Made by a program: the position numbers and the translations under genes. 64,000 nucleotides of DNA from Bispira polyomma (lineage: Eukaryota), in NCBI GenBank assembly GCA_965649765.1, contig OZ287748.1, positions 68,386,001 through 68,450,000 of the forward strand, given 5' to 3'. Below, one piece after another: positions 1,650 to 37,597 of the stretch. Under the pieces are notes generated by a model. That model was given only the letters and a program-made list of their open reading frames with translations, searched no databases and was not told the DNA's origin. Numbering within the stretch: position 1 is the first letter of the stretch; each line of letters starts with the position of its first letter.

Positions 1650-1954
1650 ATCCTGTGGCTCGCATCACACTATTGGTGGAAGGAAAGCCAATCAAGCGTA
1701 AGAAGACATCCGTGCACAAATCTGCCATCAACCCGGTGTGGAACGAAGCCTTTGTCTTCAATGTCCCGCCCCACATTCTGGATAGCACCTCTCTGGATAT
1801 TTCCATCTCTGACCGTGACCTGCTGGGGCCGGGAGGAGGGTTGGGGACTTGTCTGATAGGGTCGGGTCGCCCCGGACTCGAGGGCCAGCACTGGGCGGAA
1901 ATGAAGAACAATGTCAGAAAGGCTGTTGCCAAGTGGCAACCACTGCACGTTTGA
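1650..1954 (+). CDS. Terminal coding exon of a synaptotagmin-like protein (C-terminal part of C2B domain); upstream exons not found in window
   Basis: Acceptor ...ctcacacag|ATCCT at 1649/1650; DPVARITLL..KRKKTSVHK..NPVWNEAFVF..SDRDLLG..LG..IG..GQHW.EM....RKAVAKW.PL* fits the synaptotagmin C2B pattern (polybasic KKT, NPxxNExFxF, HWxxM); TGA 1952-1954. Confidence 0.9.
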
Positions 1955-15500: not shown

Positions 15501-16613
15501 AAATAGACAAAAAACACGTCCACATTTTACTGTCGTTTCACAGCCCTAAAAGTACAGGACAGAACTGTTAAATGTGTCTTTATGCTGATCAAATATCTTA
15601 TATATATACTATATAGCTTAGTTAAGATTCAGATTAAAGACCAAAAGACTAAAAAAATAATTAAATGGCCAAATTTCGTTATTGCTGGTAAAAAAAAACT
15701 AATAAAGAAAACTATATGCATATAAAAGTAAATCTAGGCAAATCTATTCAGTTAGCAGGTGAAACTTTTCAATGTTTCTTCATGTATTTTAATGGGAAAA
15801 AGTAAGGTCACATTAATTTTGTATTATAAATAAGGAGGCATTATCAAGTGTAATTATAAGTGACACTGTGAAAAAGGTAGTCAATCATCAAAAGGTGGTA
15901 GTTTTGATTTTTTACCTCAGATGGCCTACATAAATATCTATCACATCTGGATCATTTCTTCACCAGTATTAATAAACAACTCCAAGTGTTTCAGTGCAAT
16001 AATGTCTTATCTATAAACAAGAACATCCATATACTGTAATTTATATAAAAAGGGCCCCGGGGCTTTGTGTTATTCCGAAAGGGGGCGCCATTATTAAAGA
16101 TAACAAAAATCAGAGTAGTATGTAAAACAAGAATTACCCTTTAAATAGGCAGATCGGAATGACATGAAGGCCACTTTATGTAAGTCTATTATAGCTAGCT
16201 ATTTTAATATCATCTTAATTTTACAGGCACCGAGCTAACACGTCAATTAAAGTGTCAATTAAAGTGTTCCGACCCCCCCACTGGTTTTGGACGTTATGGT
16301 GTGTTAGCTTTGTAGACCTGTCGTACAGCTAACCCTCTAGTTCGAGGTCTTCCGACTAAAAACAATTCGGCATCCAGACATAGCTTAACTGAAGGCCAAT
16401 CAAATTACACTCTGATCACCATTAGCATACAATTATCTAATAATACAAGTCAATATTTTAACATTTCCAACACTGCCTCCCTAGTGTAGAGCCTGCTCAA
16501 ACATTGTCATTTAAGGCCTTCCTAAGGCTCCAGTTTCGTGAATAATAAAGTTTTACTGAGTTTTAGAAATAGTCACCTAAATATAGATTTTACACCTGAA
16601 TAACATAATGTCC

Positions 16614-17118
16614 CCTTAATGGGCCGGTCCCACCGGATTTACGTTAGGATTTGTAAGTCATGCATGGCCTTGTAAAATATTTGATGCAAAACGTCAGGCA
16701 AAACTAGAAATTAGCGATTTTCTCCACGTTGAAGGCTTCAACAGACGTTGAAAATGATGTATTAGTAGGTCAAAAGCTGTAAAGTCTCGCAGGGGATGCA
16801 TAAGTTTACGTCCAAGTACGTATTTGAACCCCCATAAGACATGTATGAGTACGCCAATACATGTAAATGGACTTCATAATGATGCACATTTACACACTGT
16901 GACGCATATCCACGTTTCAGTACGTCATATTTTTGCATCTTTTGTGTGTCCAAATTTCAAACGGTTTAAAATTATAAATTAGTTGCATCTCATCTCTCAT
17001 GCCAGATTATGTATATTTATGTATGTTATGTTAACTCCTGCATATTCCATGCAAACCCTTCGCAAATTAATTTTCTAACGAGTCCTAACGTGACGGCCAG
17101 TGGGACCAGGACATAAGG
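16614..17118. mobile_element. CpG-rich MITE just upstream of the candidate ferroportin promoter
   Basis: Imperfect TIRs ggtcccaccgg...acgttagga / tcctaacgt...ccagtgggacc; related end at about 18230. Confidence 0.65.
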
Positions 17119-17200
17119 CTGGTTAACATAAAGCATGGTGTGAACCCTGACTTTCATGCCACTTTTGTCTCCTTCAACTGTCGCATAGAATTACAGTGTT

Positions 17201-17379
17201 CCAATCACATGCACCAAGGGCAATAATATCAGGAGTTGTATGTACCTTTTGTCTCAAGCGATTATTGGCATTTGATTATTGGCTTCCTGCAAACCACCCT
17301 TAACGTATATCACTCTTGCCATTTTAACTAAAGAAGCTAGCTATGTATATAGAGTGACAACATCTGGTTAAATCATTTT
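17201..17379 (+). promoter_or_regulatory. Candidate ferroportin core promoter (CCAAT boxes, TATA-like, Inr-like)
   Basis: CCAAT 17201, ATTGG 17264 and 17278, TATATAG 17346, TCATTT with A at 17375 (29 nt after TATA start), followed by consensus donor AAG|gtgagt at 17533/17534. Confidence 0.45.
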
Positions 17380-17533
17380 TACTTATGTTGCTCAAAGGAA
17401 ATATCGGTTCAGGTTCTGCAGCATTTCTTTCCTTTGGGATAATCAAATGAGAAGTCTACATATACTTGGCTTCAAAATAAATGCACCTCCTTATAGAAAG
17501 AAATTAGTACACGGTTTAATGATTCTTTTGAAG
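17375..17533 (+). other. Candidate upstream first exon of ferroportin (5' UTR or alternative N-terminus)
   Basis: Donor AAG|gtgagt at 17534; pyrimidine-rich acceptor ttctgtttactttaaag| ends at 17811, directly before ATG 17812. Confidence 0.5.
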
Positions 17534-17811
17534 GTGAGTATGTATAAAGTATTTGTGAAGAGAAGTCAGACTCTCTGACAAACTCTAGCCTTTATCAGTA
17601 GTGGAGGGTGTCTCTGTATCAGACTTGTGTACTTAAAAATAAAATCTCTCCGAGAGAGCTTGGACAACCAATCATCGTGTAAAGGAGATGACATACACAC
17701 AAGCTTGACACGGAGTTTCGGTATCGAGTGTAGAGGCATTTGGACTGGATTTTAATTGTTACATATTTGTTTGTGTATTTTGGTGGAGGGTTAATTCTGT
17801 TTACTTTAAAG

Positions 17812-17833
17812 ATGGCAGGTGAATCCAGATCTG
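17812..17833 (+). CDS. SLC40A1: Ferroportin coding exon 1 (MAGESRS-)
   Basis: aagATGG in strong Kozak context; donor G|gtaagt at 17833/17834; phase 1 matches exon 2. Confidence 0.7.
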
Positions 17834-20800
17834 GTAAGTTAGTTGTTTAAAATTTATGTAAAAATAGTGAATGACAAAACATGTGTACAATCAATATTCA
17901 GTAAAAAGAGCTGGCAATGTTTTGTGTGTTTTATGTTTTTATCAGTGAACTAGTTCATTTAAATACAAAGATTGCATTGTTATAGTTTATGGTCAGTCAA
18001 GGTATTATTATTATAAATACAGGTACAATCGATACTGGCAGTGAATGTGGTTCTATATGAGGTCTTTTAAGAGTGTTTGTTTTGTTGTTAATCCACCAAT
18101 GCATTTATTTTGAGAAAAAAAAACACCCATCCAGGACAGTTGTTCATTGTTCCATGACGTATAAAATATCTGTGGATTGGTGATAATACTCAAACCTGTC
18201 TTTAAAGTCACATACTTGTGAGGCCTTAATTATGTCTGGGTCCCACTGTGGCGAATTTTGATTGCAAATGCCAGCAAATCCCGATTCTTCATTATTCTTC
18301 CCTGTTCTTCATTCCTCGTGTTGGGCTCCAAGAATTGTTCAAATCAAGGCACTACACCTATTATTCTTAAAAGGTTACACAATTCTTGTATGCTATTTAA
18401 TTGTGTCAACCAACGATATGCGACAGTGAATTTGTTATCTCTTTATAATTTTTTTTAAAACTCATATATAAAAGTTTTTGGGAATGGGAGTAAACGGCTC
18501 TATAGAACCCAAAGGTGTGAAAACTTCATATAACAGACTTAGTACACAAGTGTTTGATAAATAAAAGTAAATGGCTCTATAGAACACAAAGGTGTGAACA
18601 CCACATAACTTAGCAAAGTCCTATTAGGCTTAAATATAATATATGGGCCAAGATGTTAGATGTTAACTCCAGTTCATACAAGTCCTTAAGAATGGGAGTA
18701 AATGGCTTTATAAAATACAAAGGTGTGGACACCACATAACAGACTTTAATCTAGTATACGTAAATAGACTTGTTGACTACATTTAAGAGCTTTATAGGTA
18801 AAGATAGACTGGTTGACTGTATTTAAAAGTATATATATAGACTGGTTGACTGTATTTAAAAGTATATATATAGACTGGCTGACTGTATTTAAGAGCTCTG
18901 TATGTAAAGATGGACTGGTTGACTACATTTAAGAGCTCTGTATGTAAAGATGGACTGGTTGACTACATTTAAGAGCTCTGTATGTAAAGATGAACTGGTT
19001 GATTGTATTTAAAAGTACATATATAGACTGGTTGACTGTCGAACTGATTGCATCCTGTTTTAATGGGACACCTACCACGATCGAACTTGAGATCTGTACT
19101 AAAACTTCCCCGGCCTTCCCGACCTAGGTTAAGATCGAACTTACTGGCGATAGGATCTAACATATTTAGGATCGAAATTATCAGCAATACGATCTGACGC
19201 ATTCATATCCCTGACCATAAGAATCGAACTTCTGAAAAGTCAAAGTCGGGACTGTTATTGTAAAATATCTGACAAAATGTGCTAAAATAAAAGAAATAAA
19301 TCTGTTTTGACCTCATTTTCGATGAAAGTTTGTTGCAAATACGTTTTATCGTTCATAAACTGCACCGGAAGTGGGTTTGATATCGCAAAGGTAAACAACT
19401 TTTAAACTGGGCCCGTATTCACTAACGGTCTTAAACTAAGTCAAAACTTAGGCTAAGCCCAGTCTTAAATCTAAGACTTTTGTCTTAGCTAAGTTTTGTC
19501 TTAAAATGGTATTCACAAAAGGTGACTTAGCTAAGACTATGTTAAGACAAAAGTCTTAAATTTAAATTGTTCTTTTTACTATTATACAAAATATTATTTA
19601 CATTTTTACACATACACATATACTATATAATTAATTATGGCTATATGAACTTCCCAGAGTAAAAAAAAAATCATTAAATAAGAAATTATTTTCTTTCATT
19701 GGACTTAGACTTAAGAAATGCCTAAGACTGGCTAAGTCCCCTTCAAAGAATATATGATTCAAAATATGTTAGGAATAATACTACTTTTTGTTTGACTTAT
19801 CACAGGTTACAGTAAGGATTGTTTGCTATTTGATACCATAATACCATAGTTAAATGTTTATAGTTTGTCATGCACTTCAAATTTACAATGTTTTATTTGT
19901 AAAAGTTGTGTAAAAACCCTAAGACTTTTTACTATAAAGTTAAGCCCACTACCTACCTGTCTTAAAGTTAAGCCCTTGGCTAAGCTAAAACTTAGACTTA
20001 GCTGCTTTGTGAATACCGCTAAGACTAAGACTTTTGTCTTAGTCTTATTTCCCCAAAAGTTAAGACAAAAGTCTTAACTTTAAGCCTAAGACTTGGCTAA
20101 GTCTGTTAGTGAATATGGCCCCAGGTATCCGCTATTGCAACTATTATTGTAAAATATCTGACAAAATGGGCTTATATAAGAAGTTATGTGTTTTCATACA
20201 TTTATTCTTCCCAACCTTCCAGACCACCCCGTTTTCCCCCCCGACCAATACGTTTTAACAGGCTAGTAATAGGACAGGCCTGGAGTGAGATAAGACCTAT
20301 CAGACAGAACGTAATGACAATCCGATCAAACTTATTTGCCGAAGTCGTTTTTACAGGTCCAGGACGCAAGTCAGTACACTTTTTGAAAATATTCAGCATG
20401 TTGAATATTCTTCCCGACCTTCCCGACAAGCCCACTTTTTGCCCCTAACCTATATGTTTCACCACTTTTTCTGTTATCGATCACAAAGTCGGGAAGGTCG
20501 GTGACCAAATCCTGATAGTGGAACCACCATTTGCATGCTGATGATATAAATGCTATTTGTTCTGTTCACAGAGAGGTTAGGTGATTGGTTCCGAGGACCT
20601 CTGTTCCTGTTGTATATCAACTATTTCTCTGTCACCTGGGTGAGTACTTTATACAAGACTATATAAGACCACATCACTGTTATGTTATAACTTACTCATC
20701 TTGTGTAATATACTTTGTGTATAAAAAACTTATATTGACAGTCAAAATGTGATAGTACAGTCAAACCCCTTTAAGTGGAACTTTCTTAAATAAATTTCCT

Positions 20801-23800
20801 GATTATAAGGACCACAATTTTGCAGTCAGGCCTTTCATTTTAAAATCGACCACGTTAAGTTGCATCCTACTTAATTAAGTAGAAGGATATCTTCTGGTCT
20901 ATTGACTTAAAAGGATACACTAATATATATATAAATACAGTAGATCTAAGCTGTATGATGGGAACATATCGAGAAAGCAAGATTTTGTTTGGATAACAGA
21001 AGATTCATAAAATAGAAGAGTCATTACAGTATAACAAGTACTAAAAAATACAAAAGTGGGAGAGTAAAATTTTGTTCATAAAATGGAATATTTGGATAAC
21101 AGAAGTTCAGATAATAAAGGTTTCACTATAGTTATGCTGCATGTACTTGTCTTTTGTTAGCTCTTATTACAAACTGAATATTCTGCTTTTATATCACAGA
21201 AGAATATCTGTTATCCAAGCTTCTATTATCTTAATATTAAATTTTATGAACTTAAGGTATCAATGTGGATATCCTATTCCATAGCTCTTACAAACTGAAT
21301 ATATTCTGTTTATATATTACAGAAGAACCTCTATTATCCAAACGTCTATTATCTAAATATTTAATTTTATGAACTCACTTTCTCTCTCTCACAACTTAAG
21401 AGTTTTTCATATTGTGCCATACTTTAATACCTCTTCTATTTAATGAACCCTCTACTATTATTCATTTATCCAAACAAAATCTAGCTCTCTAAAGATGCTT
21501 CAATAATAGAAGTTCTAATGTATATATTGTTGTCATTTCAGGGCAACCGTATGTGGAACTTTGCGCTTGGTTTATTTTTTGTGAATATTGCTGACCAAGA
21601 GCTCAGATTAACAGCCATCTATGGCTTTGCTATGGGAGGATCTGTGCTGTTGTTTGGAGGGATGGTGGGCAACTGGGTGGATAGAACCAACAGGCTAACA
21701 GGTGAAAGTAGTACATAAAGGCTCTCAAAGTTCTCCTTGTATAACATAACATAAATGTTTTATATAGCACTCAACTGGTATGGTTTGTTTTCTTAACCAA
21801 ATTGTAACTCTGTATGTTTTTGATATCCTCTTGCAAACTGTTCTATGAATTTGGTCCAAAGACACTAACACTACGGTCTGCAAATATTTTACAAAATTTA
21901 CCCACTATTGCGAGATCCAAGTGAATATCCAGTGTCTTTCCTCTCTTTGATTAAATTTTGAAAATACTTAGGTGCCATGCTGTGAATGTATCTATGGACC
22001 AATGTTAAAACTATGAAGATTATCCTGTAGCGAATTGACAACCAGTGCAGAGTTTTCGTTGTATCAAAACGTTCAAAATGTCAAGCTAATGCCTTGCTTC
22101 CATCCATACACAAATGTCATCCATACACATCCGATGTAGCCTAAATTTTTTGACTCCTTGTATATTCTTTAGAGTATATCCATGTCACATATATCTGAAA
22201 AATCACCAAAATACTAGTTTTCTTTCAGTCGTGTGTACTTCTTTTATTGACTGACTTTTTCCTGTACTTTTCTTTGACCTAGTGGTCAGCCAGTTGGTCT
22301 GGTAATCAGAAAGTTCCCGCTTCAATGCCAAAATGGCTATTGGGGGATAACATCCTTGGGCTAGATGTGTACACTGTATTGCCTGTTGATCATGACTAAT
22401 GATATGTTGTAGGAATGTCCCTCAGGACCTTTGTTAGGATGTGTGCCACAGAGGATGCCTTGGTAGTGATCGTAATGCTATAGAAATAAAACAATTAGTA
22501 AAAAAAAACAATTACATTAAGATACTCAATCAGTACTTCTATAAGATCTTACTTCCAGCAGGCAAAGTGGTCTGGTGGTTATAAGTGGGTGTTTTATTGT
22601 ATCCACTGATCCGGTGGATACTTTGGTTTTGCGTACCCTATGCCGCCGCAGAGAGATTTTCGCCGTTAACACTCTCAGCGGAAAACTAGACCAGCCAGTT
22701 TCACCAAATTTGCAGGCTATTTCATTGGAAGGTAAGCTTTTATGCGACTGAAATTAGCCTCATTCTGAAAAACAAGATGGCCGCCATCAGCATTTCTTTG
22801 AAAATTATCCACCTTTTTCTACTGGCTTGTTCTCATAACTAGAAGGTTAAATCTCTTCATAGGTGATATGTATAATATATATATATGTCCTCTACAAGCA
22901 TGCAGACATTTGACCTTGAAGCTCTTCATTGAAGGTTTTCCATGGAGTGCCAAAGTACCCCACATAGCGAACTTTAAAAGTATTTATAACTCGCTTATTA
23001 TTGGTCCTAGAGGTTTGGCATGTGAAGCCTACCTATAGGAAATCATGGGCTGGGAATCTTCTGATGTGGTCCGGTTTGACCTTGGGCCCCTCATTCAAGA
23101 TCAAACACAGTATCCAAACTTAAAAGTGCTTATAATTCGCTTATTATTGGTCCTAGAGGTTTTCATTGTGAAACCAACTTATAGGTAATCATAGGCTGGG
23201 AGTCTTTTGATGTGGTCAGATTTGACCTTGGGCCCCTACTTCAAGGTCAGACGAGGGTAGCCACAGCTTGGGTGCTTCCTACCTAGGGTGCTCTGTCTTT
23301 CTGGTGGATACAAATATGCATCAGTTCTCTGATGTGCTAAGTCAAGTTATCATTAGTTTGTCACCTTAACTACCACTGCTTCTTTTATGTGGAAAAGTGT
23401 GCGAGGTATTCGCTGTAGGTTTCCTTTCAGTGCAAATACTCAAAGATGTTGAAAGTGACGTAAAAACCGAAAACCCCAAGAATTAAGGATAACAAATTTA
23501 ATTTTAATATGTACTTTCAGCTGTGCATACATCTATTAACTCTCAAATACTTATTCAGTACTTCACCTCTAGCTATCTAGACCTATTGACTCCCTTTTTC
23601 CCCCATAGTATCTTTTTTGGCATACTGGTTAAGGAATTGGTCTAGTGATCGAAAGGTCCCAAGTTCAACACTTAGCAATGCCACAATGGTTATTGGGGCA
23701 TAACATCCTTGGGCAAGATGTTCCAGGATGCTCGCTTCCAGACCTTGATGATACCTTAAGCAATTGTTTACAAATCTGACACTGAACTTTTGCTTAAGGT

Positions 23801-26800
23801 AACAGCCCGGTCTAGACCTTGACTGGAACATCCACTGCAGAACATACCTGGATATTGATTTAAGCTTTATACAAGTAGAAAAAAAAACATTTAATGGTAA
23901 TTTAACATACTCACTCAGTGTACTTGTATTATATTTTTGCAGCTGTGCGTACCTCTATTATCATCCAGAAGGTAAGTGTAGCTCTGTGTGCTGCAGTCAT
24001 CTGTCTCCTGCTCCTGTTCCAGGCCGACGTCAAGTCTCTGTGGGACGGCTGGCTCTATGTGCTGTGTCAGGGACTAGTGGTGGTATTGGCCATAATAGCA
24101 GAGCTAGCTACCATGTCCTACCTGAGGATAGAGCTGGAGAAAGACTGGTTCATTGTGGTGACAGACGGAAAGAAGGCAAAGTTAGCCAGTAAGTGTGCTG
24201 GGAGGGTGTGATGAGGGTGTGATGAGGGTGGAACATACATAGCAAGGCTGTAAAGAATCTAAACTTCACCACATACAGTGGAAGCCCTATTATCCATTAT
24301 ATATTATTTGGATAACAGAAGGTGTTTTTCAGCATAAAACAACAGGGAAAACATAAATTTGGTGTAGTAAAAAAAGAGTTAATAGAATCATTACTGTATC
24401 TACAAATGAGTAAAAGAGGTAAAACTGTAGCCAAGAAAAAAAATTTAACAAAGTTAAGAGAAAGACTATTAGTATTGCATAATGATTGTGCATTATCCAT
24501 CCTTATACCTAGGTCTCATTTACATGGATGGCCGTTATAAACCCATCATAACCGTCTTTGTATCAATCAGTGACTGAACATTGCAATTTTGTTTCAGGTA
24601 CGCCGACATTACACTTCAGAAACTCTACGGTTTCATGGCATCTTTGTCTTTGCAGTGTTAATGAGACTGTGCTACTCTATGCGGATAGCACTTGATTTAA
24701 ACAGTATTAGAACAAAAACATACAATAAGTGCAGTAAACTATCATGTAAAGTATGAGTCATTTATAATAATATCCCTAAAATAACTGAATAAATATATTT
24801 TAATGTTCAACTAAGCTATGACCACCAATCCAGTTCAATGTCGTTCCAATTAAGTTTGAATGTGTAGGACTATAAGTAAGACTAAACAAGCCCTTTATGC
24901 ACCGTATTGTAATTGCTATCTTCAATTTAGTTAAGCACCATAGTAAGTTGTGAAAACTACAGCCTGTCTGTCGTAAATCAAGATGATGATGAACAATAGG
25001 CTAAGACCAAGACTGATGGTTGATTAGCAACTATAATGACTGAGTTACATGTCCTTTCATCTCTGTCATTAATTAGCTATTTCTTGGTGACATTTTAATT
25101 AATAATGTTGCAATTGCTGTCTTCGATTAAGTTCAGCACTGTCGTAAATTGTAAAACTACAGCCATCCTGTTGTAAATTAATATGATGAATGATGACATT
25201 GTCTCAAGATCAGTCTAAATAGTTGATTGGCAACTATAGTGACCGAGTTACATATACTTTCAACATTAATTAGGGATTTCTTGCTGGCATTTTAATTCAT
25301 AATGCTGCAAAGTTAATAAATCACACACTGAAGCACTTGAACTACCTATAATATTTAGCTGAAGTAGAAAGCCACTTGAAATAGATAAACATTAGTAGCA
25401 ATAAATCTAATTTCTATTTGTAATAACTCACGTCATAGTACAGCTAAGTGGGGGTTATAATAACTTAGTGTAACTATCATTTCCAACGATGACAAAATGT
25501 AATATGGCCTTCGACGAACCTTTTTTGATGTTTGTAGAGTTGTTAACTAGTCAATGAATGTTATGTAGGTTAATTAATAATGGATGTACCAAATATTGTC
25601 AACTTGGACTGAACTGTTATATGTGAAGCCTGGGACGCAAAGTCCACTAGCATTTACAATTTCTGCAGTCTAATTTGTGCATAAAGATACAGTTATATAT
25701 AGTCTTTAGAGATAATGAATTCTTTGTTTAGAGGTCCAGTAAAACCTCTCTTATCTGAGATTTTTTATGAAGTCAGTTGTTTTTTGAATTTGGAATGTTC
25801 ACTTTTCTGTTTGTTTCTTACTAAAATTACTTCTATATCATTAACCTTCTACTATACAAAGAAAAGCTAGCTCTGCCAAGGTTCATAGTGGATTAAAGTT
25901 CTTAATATGACTTTCATTCAAGATTTCGCCTAACAGAAATTTATTTCTAAACTAGGTGTACAACATTAACACAACACTCCCAAGTAAACAAATGCATCAG
26001 CATATTTGCTTATCTTGACAGAACAATCTACATCAACAAGTTATGATATGAGGTAATATGTTATACCAATAGAAGCATAAACTTCAAATATGAAATCTTC
26101 ACCAAGTTTTTGATGGGAGTAAAGGACACTTATAACTAAACTGGAGGATGTATTGTGTATGGTTTTAGTTCAAAACAAATCGAAAGATAAGAATGTATAT
26201 TTATCCTTGTACAAATAACTTAACACAAAACAACATCATATAAATAGTTTTATATTGCTGTACATGAATTTTCGAACAAAGGCACTTCATCTTTTCCAAG
26301 AAAATAATTATTATAGAGGTAACTATATATCAGGCTGCTTTCTGAATAATGTGGGGTTCACACTATGACGGTATGGAGTGGTGGTAAGAGATGTTTTGAA
26401 AATGTAGCACGGAGAACACCCAGTAACTGTGTGTTTCCACCCGTTTCCAAGTATTTCCGAGTATTTCCAAGTATTTCCGTACCACTACTGTAACTCTTTC
26501 ATGCTAGCAATCGTTTATTTTCATGTATTTCTGTCTGTAAAACTTATCTAGATAGAAGTAGAGGGGGTATATTTCGCCTAGATGGAACAGCCGATTTATT
26601 AGGCGGAAAGACAAGTTGCAGTACCTTCTTCTACCTTTCAGTACTGCCTACTATACCTCTAATGTGTGAACGTAGCATAACATGTTGGATTTAGTTCTAG
26701 AATACGATAGTGTAAAAGGATAACGATAATCAGCAGTTTGAGTTCCATACTGTTTGGGAGATTTAACACCTGAAAAAAAAAGAAAGGAATAGAATAACAC

Positions 26801-29800
26801 CCCATCGTCTTCTGAAGTAATTAAAATAAGATCACTGCATTGTTGCATAACAGTAGAGGACATCAAATATTCCATTACATTATTTTACCACAAATGTTCC
26901 TTGTGCATTGTAATTTGCGTGGTCAAGTATATTAGTAAATATGAAAATATTATAGATTGCTAGTGTCACAATTTCATTGTTGTCTTTCATATTTATACTA
27001 GATGTGATTGTAAGTATTTTTAAACAACTGTATGATCAGTATGTCTGTTAAAAAATATCTCGTTTGCAAATGTCCTGTAAGATATAGTCTGTATATTTTA
27101 GATAACCATCCAGTTAACCACACATATATTGCCAACATAATCAATTTACGTCGTTTCCATCCACATTCGTAGAAAAGGGTTTGGAAGCTTTTTCTATGGA
27201 TGTGGACGCGAATGACGTAAATCGATTGTGTTTGCGGTATATATGGTCATATGTATGGCTAACTTCTTTGAATATATATACAGATATGTACACAGGTACA
27301 GGTGACCACTGATAGGTCTAGTTCTCCACTTAGGCAACTTTCAAGTTCTCCGAAAAGACTAGTTCTACAACATTATAGTCTGGTTTGTTATCAGTAGGCA
27401 ATTGTGTTCACATCTGGCCGTAGGATGTTATCCCACTAATTAACTTAGCAGCATTAATGGGATTTAAAACCTGGAGACCTTCTGATCGACAGACCAGCTC
27501 CCCAAACACTATTACCACAGAAGACAACATCTTTTGTAGCCTTCACAAGGTGCACTTCCCACCTTCCCAACATAGGATATGACAATGCTCCATCAGCCAT
27601 TAATATAATAGGATATATGAGTTGTTCAGTAGAGTTTCGGAAGAGAGTAAATGAAACTTCTCTCTGTATCACTGAGTTCAAACCCGGGGACCTTCTGATC
27701 AACGGACCAGCTCCACAAACACTATGGCCACAGGAAACCATGTGTATATGTACATGTCTGTATTATGTTTTCACAGATCTCAATGCCAGCACTCGAGCAG
27801 TTGACCTGATCACGAATATAGTGACTCCAATCGTCACTGGACAGATCATGACCTCTATGTCCCAAGTGATTGCTGGGGTAACCATAGTAGTGTGGCATCT
27901 GCTGGCCATAGTCATAGAATTTATCCTACTTACACAAATTTACAAGAAGGTACCACAGATGGCTCAGAAGAATACAGGTTAAGATTTTTATTTAAGGTAT
28001 AACGCATGACAAACAAGGTATATATATATACAGCATTTTATGATTCTAACATGACTATTCTAACATGAAACAGAATTGTAAAAAAGCGCAATATCAAATC
28101 CATTATGTTATGTTATATTTATGACTAATTCCAATAATTACCTGAATCCTACTACAGTTACTGCAATATTACGTTCCTGGGGGAACTATTTTCCTTTGGG
28201 CCGAAAAACCCAATGAGTATATACTGAATTTTACCAAAGCTTTCGGCCAATCAGAATCACGGACACATCCGTGTCACGTTAGACGTTAAAAGAATAAAAC
28301 AATTGTTCGTACAAAAAGCATGTATGGCTTAGACATTTAGGCAGAAAATAGGATTTTTCTGTCGGCAAGTCAATTGTGTAGAGTGTGATTTTCTGGTATG
28401 CACTTTAATGCAGAATTATACACATAGAAGATCCAGAAAGTTCCGCGAATGCACCAACTGTTTCAGGAAAACATTCAAAAACGTAAAAAGTTTACAAAAA
28501 AAAACGGGACATTAAGTGACCATCTTACTCACGTATGCTTACGTTTACTTAAGTACTGCTTACATTTCATTATGTTTCATTACATTTTACCTCACGTTAG
28601 CCATTTTTTTGTGCGTAATCGAAACGTAGGCCCAGTGTGACCAAGGCATTAAGCTGTAATATGATCAAACATTTTACAGTCTTGGCTCTTCAACGGAGAG
28701 GTGTGACTGGGCTATAGTAAACACATTTTGCCAATCTCTTTTTGCCATCCCTGAATTGTACAGTACACCTCTGAATAGCAAATACCTCCTTAATAACAAA
28801 CATTTTAGCTGGCGTCCTGTGAGTGTTCACTAATATGAAAGTTTTACTGTCCATTTACAAAAGAGCAAGAAGAGCAGCAACATCTGAATATCACTGAGGA
28901 GAAGGAGATGTCCATTAAGCCCCGGTCAAGCTCAATGAACGGCCATGTCAATTCCCACGAAAACCACATGGACAAGGAGCAAGAAGCCAACCAAAGTGAT
29001 GGGCAAAATAAACATGGCTGCTGTCATGTGATCTGTTCCCCTTGTACTATATTGTGGACTGGCTGGAAGACATATGCAAGGCAGTTGGTTGTGTTTGCTG
29101 GCTTATCTCTAGCACTGTTGTACATGACTGTACTTGGTTTTGATGGCATTACAGTAGGTAAGTGATCACACAAATAGGCTTGGCAAGCCATATTTCATGT
29201 ATACTGGGGGTATGTGGGGGTAGGTATTGTTCTAGTCAAATTTGAGTTAGTCTGGTGAACAGAATGTTCCCAGTTTGACTCTAAATTTGGGGAGTTGGTG
29301 TGGTGATCAGAAAGTCCCTGGTTCAACTCTTGGTAAGGCCATAATGGTCATTGAAGAATAACATCCTTGGGCAAGATATGAACATATCACTGCCTACTGA
29401 TGAAAAAAACATTTGCAAAATTTTTGTGTAAATTATGTAGGAATTGAAAATTTTAATGAAGTGTAAATTTTACCATTTCTTTACCATCTGTCAAAAAACC
29501 CACAGTACAATACAAAAATGTGTCACAAGTGAAAGGATTCATAGGAATTAACTGTCAATATTGGTCATTTATAGTTTTAAAGAAATATCACTGGAAATTA
29601 ATTATCACTATTTAAAAATATTTGCTCAAAATATTTAAAAAATCAATTTGTGTTGAACATTTCCACTAAATACACATATTGTCTTTTCCTGTTATCAGGT
29701 TATATCTATGGCAATGGTATTCAGGAGAATATGGTTGGCGTGGTGATGGCAGTGGGGAGTTTAGCAGGGGTGCTAGGGGCGTTTCTCTACACACAGTTCA

Positions 29801-32800
29801 GAAAGTGCCTGGGTCTAGAACGTACAGGCCTGGTGTCCTTGACCTGGCAGAGTTGTTGTCTGATTCTCTGTGTGTTGTCCGTTTGGTTACCAGGCAGTCC
29901 CTTTAGACCAGAGACGCTGTGGAAAGGTCACCAAGAGGTCAACGCTACATCGGGAGAAGCAGGGGACTTATTATGGTGCAGCAATACAAGCCAAATATTA
30001 TTTACGCACAGTGATAACAGTGGCAGTAGTAAGAATGAGGCTACTATTTTAAATGCATTCAATAGCAGTTATAGTGACTTTGACAGTCTTAATGTAACAA
30101 CACTTGGAGGAAATGCCACAGACTGTACTGCAACTGAAGCAGAAGGCTCGAGCATCATCAGTCAATCTATTACAGTATTTCTGGTAGGAATTACTAGTTC
30201 GAGAATAGGTAAGTGAGTTACCCTGTTAAGAGTATATGTGCTATTCATAATATCTGTAAATATATTATCATGTAAATTTGGAGAAAAACCATTAGTTATT
30301 TTGAAAATGTAAGCTTATTTTGTGACCTAACTACACACAGTATGGCATATTTGTCATTAAGTAACAAGTACAGATTCTTCACTCTACCTCTGGTGGCCTA
30401 TTTAAGCAATTTCCGGTAAGAGGCATTTTGGGATAAAACAAGAGTTCGGACAGAGGAATGAGTTTCATGCAATCAAATATTTAGACAATAGAAAGATTGG
30501 ATAAAATAGAATTAAATGTACTGTGATAAATTAAAGATCAATACAGTTATCTATATCTTCCATTTATAATATATATCCATATATCATTACTTAAATCTTG
30601 AAAAAAAACATTTGATTTTACAAACTCAACAAGATTTCTGCAAATTTTATCAATATTTTATCAATATACCTCTTAATTACTAATTTTACCAAATAATGTT
30701 CCTCTTAATTACTAATTTTACCAAATAATGTTCCTCTTAATTACTAATTGTACCAAAGAATGTTTCTCCTAATTACTTATTTTACAATATTCTTCTTTAT
30801 TACACAATTAAGGTCTACAGTGTAGCTTATTTATATAATTAGCAAATGCAAAAACGGTTTAGAGCTAAAGAAGACACCAGTAAATTTTGGACCGGATCAG
30901 GATGACAAGAAGCATCCGAGTATTTTTAAGCTACTTATTTGGCACTTTGGTGCTTTGGAAGAGATATAACTCTGACATGGTTGTTTCATATAATCTTATG
31001 CCCCGGTCACACATTGATGGTAATTAAGGTGGTGGTACTTGAAGTTAGCAGAAGATACTGTAACTTGTCTCGCCGCGTATTAACTCGGCTGTTTCATCTG
31101 TACAAAATATACCCACTGAAACTTGTCCAAATAAGTTTTACAGTTTGGAAAAAAGGGGAAAAGATGATTACTACTATGGTAGATTTACAGTAGGGAAACG
31201 GAAATACTCAGAAATAGTCAAAAACAGGGGGAAACCGGAGAAAGAGTTACAGTAGTAAACAGAAATACACGGAAATAGACACAAATAGTCTGAAATGGAG
31301 GAAAAACACGATTGCGGGGACAAAAGACTTTACAGTAGTAGAATTTTTTCGCCTTTTTCTGCTTTGGTGAGGTGGAAGTTTTGATATAACCAAAATCTCC
31401 GCCTCCCATGGCCAACTGTAGAAGATTTGGGAAGGAAGCCAAACTTTGGGGAAGTTATAAGATAGGTTTCCCAGTGCCACAAGGTGATTTCAAATCGTCT
31501 CTATTACCGCCTTTCCATACCGCCATAGTAATACCGGGGCTTCACTCATTTAATACGTTAGGCAGTAGTTTCCTATCTCCTTGAAGGAGGTTATGTTTTC
31601 ATCTGGGTTTATTTGTTTGTCTGTCACCAGGTGTGTACACAAAAATTACTGAACTAAGTGACATCAAATTTAGTTGAGCGACAAATAAAGTATCTATTAA
31701 ATTTAGGAGAAGATCAGTTTAGTAAAAGTGTTCAGGAAATTTTTTGAAACTGTGGTGCATTGGAGGAGGATCTGCGCTCTACTGATTGCCCTTCTAGTTT
31801 TGATTACGTGTACATTGACAAAAAACAAATCTCAGTCACACACTTCTAATTTTACACGGGAAGCTGTAGTGAAGTGAAATGGGGATAATGTTCACTTGAA
31901 AACCGTTATCATGCTAAATTTCTACCTTTTTATGCTTAATTGTTGCTGAGTCATTACCTTATATAAGTTGTTCCGATTGAAGAAGATATTATTATTAGTC
32001 AAGTGGCGAAATATATATACTTCTACTTACGCCAGATTTACACTTAAACAGGATAGATTTTAAAAGAAACAGGCTTTGACTCTGGGACTGCTGGTTTCTG
32101 TCAATATAAAAGGAAATTGACTTAAAAGTGTTTTACTTAAATGGTTTCAAAACTGTAGTGGCTCTGTTGTGAATATGAAAGGTTTATATGACTGTTCAAA
32201 ACCGTACATTTATAAAATCACTAAATCCTGTCATTGACCATATTTTATTGTGATCTTATGGTCTAAATTTCTTCATACAGATACATGTATTAAACTCCCA
32301 ATTCAGCTGCACTTAAAGTCCTAAAGTCCATTAAGTTGTCAATGTGCATTGCCTTTTACTCTGTTTTGTCTGGGGGAGACCAACTGAAAATTTGTCCTTT
32401 TTTTGTGAAATTCCTCACTGTTATTTAGAATAGCCATCAATTCGACAGAATATACTGTCTATCTGTCTATCCCAGTTCCAAGTCAATATCATAACTGAGT
32501 GATACATATACAGAGAGAGGTTTCATTTACCATCTCCCTAACTGTAGGAAATTAACATATTCAATCAAAGTCCAGTTTTATACAACAACTTTATTATGAT
32601 TTACATATCAGCATGCATCCTCATGCGTCTGGACAGAAATATATCTTACAATATGTAGCCATTTAAGTGACTCTGCGATATCACCAACTCTGCTGAAGAA
32701 CTCATATATCCCATATTTCCAATTCAATTTCATAACAGATATGCAAAGAGAAATTTCATTTACTTTCTTCCAAAACTCTACTGAAGAACTTGTATGTCCC

Positions 32801-34303
32801 ATGTATCCTATTATAGTAACCGCTGATCGAACAATGTCATTCCCTGTGTTAAGAAGGTAAGAAGTGCACCTTGTGAAGGCTACAAAATATGTTGTCTTCT
32901 GTGGCCAAGTGAATAGGGTGTTGGTCTGGAGATCAAAAGGTCCGGATTCGACTCCTGCTAATGCTGCTAACTTCATTGGTGAAATAAAATCCTTAAGTAA
33001 GATGCGAACATGCTATATCCTGTTTGATGATGACCCAAAGGCTATACAGCCTATACTGTGGGACTATTCCTGTCACAAAAGGAGCGGCTTAGAGGATATC
33101 ATCTATCAGTAGGGCATTACATAACTGCTACAATAATACTAATACTAATAACAATATGAGGGACCATTTCTCAAAAGAAAGTTCAGACATAAGGGTAAGC
33201 ATCTGCTTAGATGGCACTATCTTTCACCTCTGAGAACAGTGTGAGTTCTACTCCCACTGCTTCCTTCATGTAAAAAACTTTGTCAGGTACTTGCCCTTAG
33301 TTAGTTGGTGGGGTTCCAATACAAAGAGTACTTCAATGCAGTTTGATCTAACAATAAATCTAGCCATCACAATATGACTTAAGTGGCATCAAACCCAAAA
33401 TAATTCAAATTCAACCATAAAGGGCTATACAAACCGCCGACTACACTACACTGCATCACACTACAGGGGACAACATATCACTGCAAGACAGCTACATTCA
33501 CACCAGTCACGACAGCACAATACATATTCCATATAAACTACATGGAACAAACAGTGTGAACAATCAATAGGTATTATCTTATTTCTACTTTTTTGAAAGT
33601 CAGCGGTTGTAATGTAAGACCCTTGAGGGTTTTAGGATTAATTATGGAGTCTATTACACTTTTGATATCAAAGTTTTATCTATTTAATTATACAGTCAAC
33701 CCCCTTTAAGTAGCACCCTAATAAGTGGAATTACATGTTAAAAAGAACTCATTTTAAGGTCCTATGGCTATATTTGCTACCTTTAAATTAAAAATAGAAT
33801 TTACATTGTTAAGGTGTTAATAGAACTTTATAACCCCTTAAGTAGAATTTGTGTTAAGTAAGACAAATTTGTATGGTCCCTTTAGATTTGATCTAGATGT
33901 AATTTACTGAATTAATCTCCCTCTCAGTCTGTGTATAATTTAGCTTCTTTTCAACTGTGCTAATATCTGCATCTATTAATTATTCTTTTCAGGTTTATAC
34001 CTGACAGACTTAGTGATTTGCCAGATTCAACAGGAGAATGTTCCCGAAAGAGAGCGGGGTATCGTAAATGGAGTGCAGAACTCTCTCAACAACTTCATGG
34101 ATATGTTAAAGTTCATCTTGGTCATTTTTCTCCCAAGAATTGAGACTTTTGGCTTCCTGATTATCTTGTCGTATTTGGCTGTAACCACCGCATGCCTCTT
34201 TTATGCATATCACTGTTTTAGGGTCAGTCAGCATTCAATAATAAGGTGCTTAGCGGGCAAAACTGTCACAAGTACTAAAGAAGTTATTGCAGTGGATGTA
34301 TAA
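17812..34303 (+). CDS. SLC40A1: Ferroportin (SLC40 family), join(17812..17833,20572..20639,21542..21701,23943..24188,27777..27977,28864..29157,29699..30208,33993..34303), 1812 nt, 603 aa
   Basis: All introns GT-AG and phase-compatible; motifs LLY...TWGNRMWNFA, LTAIYG, GNWVD..NRL, EKDW, NA..R..D..TNI..P..GQIM, LALLYMTVLGFD.IT.GY, SRIGL..DL..Q..QENVPE.ERG.VNGVQNSLN..MD.LKF.LVI.LP..ETFG.LI.LS. Confidence 0.95.
18481..18750 (+). repeat. Three diverged copies of an about 55-bp unit
   Basis: gtaaayggctctatagaacmcaaaggtgtg near 18490, 18567, 18698. Confidence 0.7.
18764..19038 (+). repeat. Minisatellite with 32/39-bp variants (agactggttgactrYatttaa...), about 8 copies
   Basis: Visible tandem repetition in ferroportin intron 1. 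Confidence 0.85.
19407..20124. mobile_element. MITE with TIRs and many ctaag/cttag subterminal repeats
   Basis: ctgggcccgtattcactaac / gttagtgaatatggccccag; short relative at about 47633-47740. Confidence 0.8.
20572..20639 (+). CDS. SLC40A1: Ferroportin coding exon 2 (ERLGDWFRGPLFLLYINYFSVTW); not in ORF track
   Basis: ttctgttcacag| acceptor, TGG|gtgagt donor; aligns to human FLLYLGHSLSTW. Confidence 0.9.
21542..21701 (+). CDS. SLC40A1: Ferroportin coding exon 3
   Basis: tttcag|GGCAACCGTATGTGG ... ACAG|gtgaaa; GNRMWNFALG...GNWVDRTNRLT. Confidence 0.95.
22597..23348 (-). mobile_element. HINE/Helentron-like element with two internal 145-bp repeats
   Basis: Terminal hairpin gtatccac-tgatccg-gtggatac, matching subterminal gtggatac near 23305 plus hairpin gcatcag..ctgatgt; ttattattggtcctagaggt near 22996 and 23141; caagatggccgcc motif. 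Confidence 0.7.
23943..24188 (+). CDS. SLC40A1: Ferroportin coding exon 4
   Basis: ttttgcag|CTGTG ... GCCA|gtaagt; QKVSVALC...ELEKDWFIVV. Confidence 0.93.
24909..25305 (+). repeat. About 200-bp tandem duplication (2 diverged copies)
   Basis: aattgctrtcttc...aaaactacagcc...gcaactatartgacygagttacat repeated. Confidence 0.75.
27090..27281. mobile_element. About 190-bp fold-back palindrome (MITE-like)
   Basis: aatcaatttacgtcgtt..tccacattcgtagaaaag / tttttctatggatgtggac..aatgacgtaaatcgatt. Confidence 0.7.
27385..27675 (-). repeat. SINE-containing repeat, inverted partner of 32740-33035
   Basis: Reverse complement matches gaagtgcaccttgtgaaggctacaaaa.atgttgtcttctgtgg and flanks; SINE part also near 22280, 23630, 29295, 62128. 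Confidence 0.8.
27777..27977 (+). CDS. SLC40A1: Ferroportin coding exon 5
   Basis: tttcacag|ATCTC ... ACAG|gttaag; NASTRAVDLITNIVTPIVTGQIM...IEFILL..IYKKVP. Confidence 0.93.
28864..29157 (+). CDS. SLC40A1: Ferroportin coding exon 6 (cytosolic loop and TM7)
   Basis: tttacaaaag| acceptor (phase-compatible but less certain), GTAG|gtaagt donor; GWKTYARQ.V..AGLSLALLYMTVLGFDGITV. Confidence 0.88.
29699..30208 (+). CDS. SLC40A1: Ferroportin coding exon 7
   Basis: gttatcag|GTTAT ... ATAG|gtaagt; GLERTGL..L..Q..CL.LCV.SVWLPGSPF...S.TVFLVGI.SSRI. Confidence 0.93.
30668..30786 (+). repeat. About 32-bp tandem repeat, about 3.5 copies
   Basis: cctcttaattactaattttaccaaataatgtt. Confidence 0.85.
31565..31800 (-). 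mobile_element. HINE-like family A copy
   Basis: ggaggttatgtttt...ctgcgctctactgattgcccttctagtt, reverse of the family consensus. Confidence 0.65.
32740..33035 (+). repeat. SINE-containing repeat, inverted partner of 27385-27675
   Basis: See 27385-27675. Confidence 0.8.
33993..34303 (+). CDS. SLC40A1: Ferroportin terminal coding exon 8
   Basis: cttttcag|GTTTATAC; GLYLTDL..QQENVPERERGIVNGVQNSLNNFMDMLKF...; TAA 34301-34303. Confidence 0.95.
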
Positions 34304-34690
34304 CAGTCAGTGTTGTAGCATTAATGAGATTATTATCTCATCAATACTTAAGGCCATTAAGGTAGAAGTTTGTATTGTCTATTTTTCTTTTCAGAGAACA
34401 AGATTTTGATTGGTTCATTGGAGGTTAGTGACACAATAGAGGCATTTCAGTATCAAACAACAGGAAAATTTCAATTTGTGAGAGTGAAAGTGTATGTTCC
34501 AATTGACAATATTCCTATAATAGAAGTCCAGGTGCTGTAGTCACAAATAGAATTTTTTAGTCTCACCCAATCAAATCCTTTGACACATTTTCAGTAAATC
34601 AAATTGGTTGACACCAAAATTTACCAATTAGAATTTTTCTGAATACGAGCACAGAATATAAAGGTTCTACTGTACTTTGCTGATATTATT

Positions 34691-34893
34691 AGAGTAAGAA
34701 ACCTAAAATTGGCGACTGTATCTGAAATTGGCCACTAAGAAAATGTTGTGTTTTTAATAGAATTGTGGGTAATATTTGCTAAAATCAAGATTATTGTAAC
34801 TATTTTGCCTTACTTATACAGATTTTTTTGATTTAGCTTAAATTTTAGGGGTGGCGAATTTGAGATATAGTGGACAATTTTAGGTTCCTTACT
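34691..34893. mobile_element. MITE family B
   Basis: agagtaagaaacctaaaattg / caattttaggttccttactct TIRs. Confidence 0.75.
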
Positions 34894-35114
34894 CTACCTC
34901 AGAAATTAGCAAGTCATAATCAAATGTCCAATCATAGTAGAATGTCTATTATCTGAACATTTTGGGAGATTTGGTTAGGTTGATTGATGTTTTTATATAA
35001 TACAAAAGGTTGGGGGTTGTTTTCAATATAAAGAATAGGAAATTTAAATTGGGAGGGTAAAATGAAAATGTGTTTATAAAATTTAAAATTCTATTATAGA
35101 ACTTTAGATTCGTT

Positions 35115-35395
35115 AAACCACAAATTTCAGTAATTACACAAAATGACTGAAAATTTTAGTCATTACACGTAATGACTAGTGGTTTCAGGCATTACACAAA
35201 ATGACTAGAAGTTTTAGTCATTACGCGGAATGACTGGTCTCACAGATTGCCAAAGACATGCCATTTTTACTTTACTGATTACATCTTATCACAGAAATAC
35301 AATACCAACACCATGAAATTAAACCACAAATGCCAGTCATTACGCAAAATGACTGAAAGTTTTAGTCATTATATGTAATGACTGGTTTCACAGAT
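35115..35395. repeat. About 29-bp units with palindromic core agtcatt-N6-aatgact
   Basis: About six copies in two clusters. Confidence 0.7.
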
Positions 35396-35410
35396 TGTCT
35401 GTAACATATA

Positions 35411-36180
35411 CACTGGTCAAAATGAAATACGACTCAGTCGTATAAATGTAGGTAATTTCAAAAGTGGAAAATTTTAATTATTTTGATATGTATTTGTATT
35501 AACATATCCATTTTCCCTATTCTAAGCTACTGTAGCTTCCAAATTTTTATTTTCCTTAGAACATTACACAGAAAATCGTGTGATGGGAAAGATATCTAAA
35601 TTCACAAGAACACAGATTTACAGATGTCAAAAAAACCGAAAGTTGTCTTTAACTTGCCAATTTATTAAAAAATATCCTTTTTAAAGTGGGTTCTGCTCTC
35701 ATTCAGGTTTATACACTCCATACAATGTCTTTGAATGGTCACAACAGTGTTATGGATGACTTGCTTATCCAAGTTGTCCCATTCATTCCTGAGGGCTTGG
35801 AGCAGGATGGCGACATTGGAACAGATGGATTATGATCTGGAACACTGTTGTGACTATGCAAAGACATTCTACTGAGTGTATTGACTTGAATAGGGCCACA
35901 ACCCACTATTAACAGTTTTTTTCAATAAATTGGCAAGTGAAAGACAACTTTCATTTTCTTGGCAACTGTTTTCCTGTGCTTGAAAATTTGGATTTCTCAC
36001 CCATAGCATTCTTTGCTTGGTAATTCCTTGAAGAAATTTTTTTTTGGGGGAAGCAACAACAGCATGAAATAAGGAATATAGATATGTTAATACAAATAAA
36101 TATCAAAATAAAAAAAATTCTCCGTACTCTTGAAATTACCAACATTTATATGTCTGAGTTTTATTTTATTTTGACCAGTG
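35411..36180. mobile_element. Tc1/mariner-derived fold-back element, TA TSD, arms about 340 bp
   Basis: ta|cactggtcaaaat ... attttgaccagtg|ta; arms complementary inward to 35751/35841; Tc1 transposase C-terminal remnant on both strands. Confidence 0.88.
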
Positions 36181-37597
36181 TACATTAGATATTTTAGAAC
36201 TGGCTATTACTTAGTATAATCTGTTATATATACATATACAGTCAAATCTCTATTTTCTGAACTTCTGTTATCCGAATGTTCAGTTTTATGAACACAGGTT
36301 CACTTTCCAAAATTCACATTTTCATATTGTTTTAAACTAATACTCCTTTTCTATTTCATGAACCTTCTATTATCTGAACAAAGTCTTACTTTCCCAGGTG
36401 CTACTGTATTTATTATGTATTTAGAGTAGACCAAATCAGTCCCTAGACAAATGATCGCTGACAAACTGTCTCTGGATACAATAAGTTTCAGCAATCACAT
36501 TTATAATTAGTTAAAATTATGAGGTAAATCTAAGACCATGTATATTGCATGTAATGAATTTTTCATCGAGAAAATACAGACGTAGAATATGTGCAGAAAT
36601 TTGAGACACAGACACCCTCTTCTAGGGCACGTTCTTATTTTCCATACATACATTTTCGAACCTCCCTAGGGGAGTATTCTTATTTTCCATACATGCCTTT
36701 TTTCGCCTTTTTGACATTCTTATTTTTGGTAAAAAATAGATGGCCAATTTCGTTTACATTCTTATTTTTGGTAAAAATTAGCAAAGCCTTTGCAGGGTCT
36801 TATTTTTCTTATTTTTAGGCGTTCTTATTTTTGGTGAGAAGAATAAATTTTTACAATCGTCAGTTTCGCTTTGGCTTGAAAAAGTGGGATCTTGTTCAGT
36901 CTTGCTACTACCTTGATTGTGTGAGGTTTGATAGTTTAATAGTGTGGAGGGAAATTATTATTCTTAACACTGATGCACTTGGCTACTTTATTGGTCATAC
37001 ATAACAATGTACACTGCTGTACTACGACTTATTATTTGGAGAAGGTGCTTAAAGTGTTATATGTGTAAAGTAAATTAACTTTTTAATATAGGCTGAGTCT
37101 TTGCTTGAACTTATTTTTAGGTTTACGCTTACAATATTCTTCTGTGTATACTGAGCATTTGTCAATGTGGGATATTGTTATGAAGGTTAATTAATATTCG
37201 GAAATATTCAAAATATAGTAGAACCTCTATTTTACGGACATCTTGGGAGAGTCAGAATTTGTTTGGCTAAAAGAAGATCCGTAAAATAGAAGTGGCATTT
37301 TAGTATCAAAGAATAGCCAAAAATAAGTTTGGGAGAGTGAAATTGAGTTTGTAAAATCAAACATTTGGATAATAGAGTGTCGGATTATAGAGGTTTTAAT
37401 GTATTTGCTAAAACTGGGTAGTATTGGACAAATGTGTGGTATTAAAAACTCAAATAGTTATGAATCACTGGAAAATCATGAAGTACTTGAACTCTCTCTG
37501 TAAGTTTATAGGTTATAAACTGTAACTTTAACAAAGTAGGGGGTGGGCTCTTAAGAGGTCTTAAGTGGTCTTTTGGCTTCAAATTGAAACTGTATTA

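Follow-up and report, generated by a model that had tools for sequence, protein, structure and literature searches.

The 64,000-nucleotide stretch of Bispira polyomma DNA analyzed here (the window; contig OZ287748.1, positions 68,386,001 to 68,450,000) carries a predicted ferroportin gene on its forward strand (17812-34303), with eight exons whose splicing was read from the DNA, GT-AG boundaries at every intron, and an open frame of 603 amino acids. Also in the window are the last exon of a C2-domain gene (1544-1954, forward strand; Pfam C2), presumably synaptotagmin-like, and, on the reverse strand, exons of an SLC6/SNF sodium-symporter gene (59770-62602; Pfam SNF); neither neighbor has an evident link to the ferroportin gene. 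Intron 1 includes a ~40-base tandem repeat at 18770-19030, recognized by eye, and read depth indicates high-copy repeats at ~19200-20500 and ~22600-23340.

Residues are given here in human numbering, obtained from human chains found in a PDB search and from two mammalian rows (shrew and bilby) at a constant offset. Exon 1 (17812-17833), which provides the ATG and a phase-1 donor, is placed by its open frame and GT donor; exon 2 (20572-20639), covered by one genomic contig, begins TM1 and carries H32Y (20622-20624) and S35V (20631-20633). Exon 3 (21542-21701) encodes TM1-TM2, with D39N (21545-21547) and H43N (21557-21559) beside retained R40, W42, D84, and R88, and is spanned by genomic contigs (21352-21766) that show no other letters in three of three runs. 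Exons 4 to 6 are supported by frame and contigs: exon 4 (23943-24188; TM3-TM4) retains Q99 (23966) and D157 and has N100K (23969-23971), N144E (24101-24103), and a one-residue insertion (24122-24124); exon 5 (27777-27977; TM5-TM6) retains N174, R178, D181, and E219 (27917) and has N212H (27896-27898) and S215A (27905-27907); exon 6 (28864-29157; the cytosolic loop and TM7) retains Y318, T320, and D325 and has C326G (29145-29147). The last two exons are supported by frame. Exon 7 (29699-30208) covers TM8-TM10, including a long outer loop with five N-x-S/T sequons, and retains R466, while exon 8 (33993-34303) runs from TM10 through TM12 to the stop, with W470Y (33998-34000), H507K (34109-34111), and retained D473, Q478, Q481, E486, R489, and D504. 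For exon 6, two alternative in-frame acceptors lie 6 and 9 bases further along, and using either would alter the loop only. At 23498-23537, 420 bases 5' of the acceptor of exon 4, a 40-base segment resembles that acceptor and the opening codons (~78%); splicing there would stop the frame after 40 codons.

Read contigs from three runs match exons 1 and 3-8 without any other letters, and exon 2 in one run; the runs are genomic, with contigs that span introns, and represent at most two samples from one study, possibly the source of the assembly itself. Assembly error as the origin of the substitutions is rejected, given that the genomic contigs agree letter for letter. An initial annotation of this DNA had proposed a splice-consistent 603-residue frame at 21542-34111; that frame is borne out, with exons 1 and 2 lying 5' of its start. 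The codons it had singled out at 21545 (Asn), 21557 (Asn), 27896 (His), 29145 (Gly), and 34109 (Lys) are in frame, and both its further substitutions (H32Y, N100K, N144E, and W470Y) and its list of retained residues (D84, R88, D157, N174, R178, D181, E219, D325, R466, D473, and D504) hold under human-chain numbering. The TM4 insertion that it reported corresponds to Leu144 in the protein's own numbering and is absent from all 246 homologs aligned; S35V and S215A had been overlooked.

By profile, tree, and inner gate, the predicted product is a ferroportin (SLC40). Each of the five exons scanned against Pfam PF06963 (FPN1) passes the 24.6-bit cut-off by itself (43.6-67.4 bits); the five cover the profile at 17-213 and 282-430, and exon 6 covers 212-288. 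At the level of sequence, the spliced protein aligns colinearly with the family, which is built as a 12-helix MFS fold with an unwound TM7, and the TM7 motif and hydrophobic segments are present. The predicted gene fails the tests for a vertebrate-type, hepcidin-regulated FPN1. No Rfam match to a 5' iron-responsive element was found in the 64-kb window, and no IRE-like stem-loop pattern was found at 16000-17840 or 34300-37000.

The proposal that the gene is a paralog proved correct, as the genome contains at least three ferroportin loci, all on the same contig (C1): paralog A at 10.83 Mb, the present gene at 68.41 Mb, and paralog B at 87.78 Mb. Exon reconstruction, which is missing exon 1 of paralog A and exons 1-2 of paralog B and hence their first residues, yields D39, Q43, N99 (Q99N), N100, N212, N326, and K507 for paralog A, which also has N144D, S147D, N174S, and Q481L. 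Paralog B has D39, M43, Q99, N100, N212, S215, E219, C326, and K507, with all five Ca2+ ligands retained; because it keeps D39, Q99, N100, N212, S215, E219, and C326, a canonical ferroportin copy exists in the genome. At C1 ~87787531-87788040 (L021/L022), paralog B also contains about six tandem copies, each of 81-89 bases, of the acceptor and first codons of its TM5 exon, several of them open and with small codon changes, which may be alternative acceptors or decoys.

In a quick tree of 36 rows from which the seven pocket columns were excluded, paralog B and proteins of Helobdella, Capitella, Lamellibrachia, and Dimorphilus share a 17-row clade with the gene (SH-aLRT 98), a placement that points to a probable annelid host. 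Paralog A groups outside this annelid clade with mollusc and nemertean ferroportins (SH-aLRT 96), and the tree identifies it as an apparently old second lineage. AU tests reject a sister relationship to paralog A (P = 0.009) and reject neither paralog B (P = 0.26) nor Owenia P0075 (P = 0.139) as sister. The best matches are annelid proteins, the closest being from Lamellibrachia at 41% identity; word-index searches and the best 150 of the 5,397 matches of a full profile search, which are of limited sensitivity and make absence weak evidence, returned no closer ortholog.

To place the substitutions in the family, we counted residues in an alignment of 181 proteins of 340-900 residues (from 215 fetched, 34 dropped by length), extended by 65 rows, with 32 near-identical ones left out, to a 246-row set; counts refer to rows that are not gapped at the position in question. 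The mammalian metal sites S1 and S2 (PMC7655804) comprise positions 39/43 and 326/507, which here read N/N and G/K. His43 occurs in only 15 of 156 homologs, Cys326 in 7 of 178, and His507 in 31 of 170, Lys (93 of 170) being the commonest residue at 507. All four mammalian ligands are present in 4 of 128 homologs, of which the three named are all fish; H43, C326, and H507 are together absent in 105 of the 128, and D39 as well in 23. On these counts, S1 and S2 are mostly vertebrate traits. They agree with the initial annotation that loss of C326 and H507 is unsurprising outside vertebrates, and they divide its claim that both canonical metal sites are remodeled: D39N is unusual, but the losses of H43, C326, and H507 are ordinary losses of vertebrate-specific ligands. 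H32Y is ordinary as well (Tyr32 in 11 of 132 homologs, including four close relatives). By comparison, neither D39N nor N212H is the ordinary invertebrate state, with Asn39 in 3 of 142 and His212 in 2 of 176 rows. W470Y is rare as well (Tyr in 1 and Trp in 169 of 174 rows), at a residue that lines an inhibitor pocket (PMC10030120).

The larger change is in the Ca2+ pocket, which the initial annotation underestimated while its headline overstated the transition-metal sites. Published work defines an N-lobe cation pocket of S35, D39, N212, and S215 (PMC4633820) and Ca2+ ligands D39, Q99, N100, N212, and E219, with N100 one of five residues within 4 Å of the ion and the bound Ca2+ buried in a four-helix bundle, inaccessible to solvent (PMC9883014); D39/Q99/N212/E219 has been termed strictly conserved (PMC6079014). 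Here, the pocket reads V35, N39, Q99, K100, H212, A215, and E219, so that five of seven positions are changed (S35V, D39N, N100K, N212H, and S215A) from states that prevail in the family: Ser/Thr35 in 122 of 137 rows, Asp39 in 114 of 142, Asn100 in 145 of 156, Asn212 in 163 of 176, and Ser/Thr215 in 159 of 176. The five Ca2+ ligands are all kept in 92 of 136 homologs, and at least three are changed in 6 of 136. One of 133 homologs also has five of the seven pocket positions changed, making the state rare rather than unique, and no homolog in the 246 rows combines any two of N39, K100, and H212. By these counts, the Ca2+ site is a common but not universal ferroportin trait, and the gene is a family variant.

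The changes are also concentrated: of the seven pocket positions, which were taken from published work but selected once the substitutions were known, 5 are altered, vs. 7 of the 89 further columns with ≥75% conservation (Fisher P = 2e-4) and 0 of 25 conserved polar columns (P = 1e-4), and the seven non-pocket changes are all mild (such as I/L, I/V, and W/Y). In the 246-row set, the corresponding figures are 12 of 103 other conserved columns and 3 of 28 polar ones. Since single changes at D39, N100, or N212 are reported to abolish Ca2+ binding in human ferroportin (PMC9883014), and single site changes do so in the bacterial protein too (PMC6079014), Ca2+ binding has very likely been lost here. 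Other departures from the canonical pocket were seen in the alignment. Bivalve ferroportins (Ylistrum, Mercenaria, and Ruditapes among P0007, P0069, P0074, P0098, P0019, and P0237) have Ala39, some with Asn99 and Ala215 in addition; having no basic residue at 99/100, they represent a second route to pocket loss. Lamellibrachia satsuma P0009 has Lys219 in place of Glu with Asp39 kept, while the 80%-identical P0008 has Glu; the difference could reflect either a genuine swap of charge or an error in the sequence.

We tentatively propose, at a confidence just short of even, that this intact, anciently duplicated ferroportin is a Ca2+-independent exporter of divalent metals, with a predicted Lys100-Glu219 pair taking the place of the ion. 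In its favor are the clustering of changes in the pocket, the complete inner gate, the open frame, and the canonical paralog B. The rebuilt N-lobe pocket would no longer bind Ca2+; Lys100, at a residue within 4 Å of the ion, could pair with Glu219, which in the bacterial protein is a bidentate Ca2+ ligand that together with N212 kinks TM6 (PMC6079014). The formal charge of the 39/100/219 set is 0 here and −2 in 111 of 139 rows, and because a neutral Asn39/Lys100/Glu219 set needs no balancing cation, Asp39 would become dispensable. Metal would instead be bound by the retained carboxylates D181, D325, and D504, as in other non-vertebrate ferroportins, perhaps helped by Glu144; in simulations, Fe2+ resides near D325, D504, and H507 (bioRxiv 2020.03.16.993006). 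H+ coupling may be weaker. A lysine acting as Na+ surrogate has been described at Lys191 of GkApcT (PMC5803215).

The family offers a partial echo of this arrangement. Where position 99 or 100 is Lys/Arg, Asp39 is absent in 7 of 8 homologs, vs. 20 of 131 that have no such residue (139 homologs, the present gene excluded), and the basic residues appear to have arisen about eight times (8 tree changes for 9 rows), in Owenia, Pinctada, Notodromas, Euglena, Monosiga, and fungi. After correction for the tree, the covariation is not significant (8 independent pairs, 5.0 in the same direction and 0.1 in the opposite one, median P = 0.0625), and with Glu39 counted as kept the raw figures become 5 of 8 vs. 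18 of 131, with a corrected P of 0.375; we regard the association as suggestive only. Counting against the surrogate, the Lys100 homolog P0197 keeps Asp39, and 20 homologs lose Asp39 without gaining a basic residue. Functional data on Asp39 point in two directions. In liposomes, D39A or D39A/H43A has a modest effect on Co2+ transport (PMC9883014, PMC7655804), whereas in cells D39A gives no iron export (PMC12594662, PMC8232785); in oocytes, D39E is reported to abolish and N212Q strongly to cut efflux. Because D39A, D39E, and N212Q abolish or strongly cut export in cells, this paralog may export iron poorly.

It is possible, though less probable than the Ca2+-independent exporter, that the pocket changes accompany a new substrate or altered coupling, the idea of the initial annotation, in which case Glu144, Asp181, Asp325, and Asp504 or a new His212/Glu219 site would handle a different metal, a chelated metal, or an organic solute. 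The D39 loss takes away the last S1 ligand, S1 mutation is reported to weaken H+ coupling (PMC7655804), and the bacterial protein binds a metal-chelate complex (PMC6079014); a canonical paralog frees this copy to change. N144E, the unique TM4 insertion, C326G, and W470Y all alter the cavity region, within which we take position 144 to face the cavity. Yet 21 of 178 rows share C326G, and position 144 varies across the family (Asn in 49 and Glu in 8 of 160). The suggestion that Glu144 compensates for loss of Asp39 finds no family signal: residue 144 is acidic in 13 of the 116 homologs with an acid at 39 and in 2 of the 23 that have lost it. His212, which the initial annotation had placed in the cavity as a gained ligand, lies in the buried Ca2+ pocket instead, beside Lys100. 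Human ferroportin, moreover, already carries Co, Zn, and Ni (PMC6079014), so that a shift among these metals would be modest.

The inner gate, as its residues are named in PMC12246770, is retained throughout: D84, R88, D157, and R489; R178, D473, N174, Q478, and Q481; and Y318, with R156 present as Lys, the commonest family state (93 of 162). D181, D325, and D504 are retained as well. An improbable reading of such a protein is an expressed, conserved, but nearly inactive transporter that serves as a slow leak, a sensor, or a trafficking factor. In cells, iron export requires D39 (PMC8232785), and D39, H43, C326, and H507, all four mammalian metal ligands, are missing here, which also counts against an exporter. 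The published mutants of the second site diverge by assay: changes at C326 and H507 spare efflux in cells, where D39 and D325 changes reduce it (PMC8232785), and the C326/H507 double mutant is much slower in liposomes (PMC7655804). Against near-inactivity, 23 of 128 homologs are likewise without all four ligands, and retention of every inner-gate residue points to selection on alternating access.

Codon-level comparisons bear on whether the gene is maintained at all. Identity to paralog B at the three codon positions is 0.56/0.69/0.33; third positions are saturated against both paralogs, and second positions remain 66-69% identical. In a neutral substitution simulation, in which indels are ignored, 12% of runs still have an open frame after 40 amino-acid changes and 1.2% after 80. 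Because second positions are kept, third positions are saturated, and the frame has stayed open relative to this simulation, the gene has likely been under long-term purifying selection, with very recent loss possible; dS is ~2-2.4 to paralog A and not computable to paralog B, and is thus saturated and uninformative for recent selection. That the gene is a relaxed or recently dead duplicate whose pocket changes are decay is the least probable reading, for although the end branch is long (1.47 changes per column in the quick tree vs. a median of 0.7), no ortholog turned up in the word-index searches or the best 150 of 5,397 profile matches, and saturated dS would hide recent relaxation, the substitutions cluster in a single pocket and spare all 25 conserved polar columns elsewhere, the distance from the clade base in FastTree is ordinary (0.83 vs. 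0.67-1.20), and the eight exons, with frame and all splice sites intact, contain no stops, frameshifts, or broken splice sites that would mark a pseudogene.

Extended to the family, the Ca2+-independent exporter reading becomes a bolder and rather doubtful conjecture, in which ferroportins would have traded the Ca2+ cofactor for a built-in Lys/Arg about eight times (in fungi, protists, annelids, oysters, and ostracods), giving an undescribed Ca2+-independent class of which this gene would be the cleanest animal example. N100K would then rescue iron export of human D39N, and Asp39 would be needed in cells for a structural cation rather than for iron binding.

Among characterized systems, human and tarsier SLC40A1 (PDB 6w4s, 6wbv, 8dl6-8, 8bzy, and 6vyh) share full-length homology, the inner gate, and D181, D325, and D504 with the present protein, which differs in being without D39, H43, C326, and H507, in having three of five Ca2+ ligands changed, and in the absence of an Rfam IRE from the window. 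The nearest relatives are annelid ferroportins of the same clade, with up to 41% identity (Lamellibrachia P0009, Capitella P0013, Helobdella P0020, Dimorphilus P0003, and paralog B); they have in common with this gene a non-His residue at 43, mostly a non-Cys residue at 326, Lys507, and in some cases Tyr32, but D39, N100, N212, and S215 are kept throughout the clade wherever the row is not gapped. Within the clade, Capitella P0218 has Met99 and Lamellibrachia P0009 has Lys219. The closest parallels in the pocket are Owenia fusiformis P0075 (I39, A99, and K100) and Pinctada imbricata P0085, in which Lys100 accompanies loss of Asp39 in a duplicated gene, as here; K100 is carried by both Pinctada P0085 and P0097. 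These three proteins keep N212, unlike this gene, and the best trees place them apart from it (AU P = 0.139 for a clade with P0075). Bdellovibrio BbFpn (5aym-o and 6btx), which defines the N-lobe pocket T20/D24/Q84/N196/S199/E203 (PMC4633820, PMC6079014), keeps that pocket, binds Ca2+, and has Phe at the N100 position (PMC9883014), whereas the pocket of the present protein is changed. GkApcT and MjApcT, which have a lysine at the Na2 site, show how the amine of a lysine can substitute for a structural cation (PMC5803215), by analogy only, as these are unrelated proteins of the LeuT fold in which the ion is monovalent Na+. In the open-access literature covered, we found no description of ferroportins with Lys100 or without the Ca2+ site, of annelid paralogs, or of characterized Owenia or Pinctada copies.

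Because S1 and S2 are largely vertebrate traits, metal must be bound by other means in most ferroportins. What Ca2+ does in the family is disputed: work in oocytes and cells describes a cofactor that is required but not itself transported (PMC6079014) and, in contrast, liposome work describes a separately transported ion that iron export does not depend on (PMC9883014), and D39A likewise kills export in cells with a modest effect in liposomes. A natural, gate-intact paralog that appears to be without the Ca2+ pocket, beside a paralog that keeps it, would provide a direct test of both Ca2+ models.
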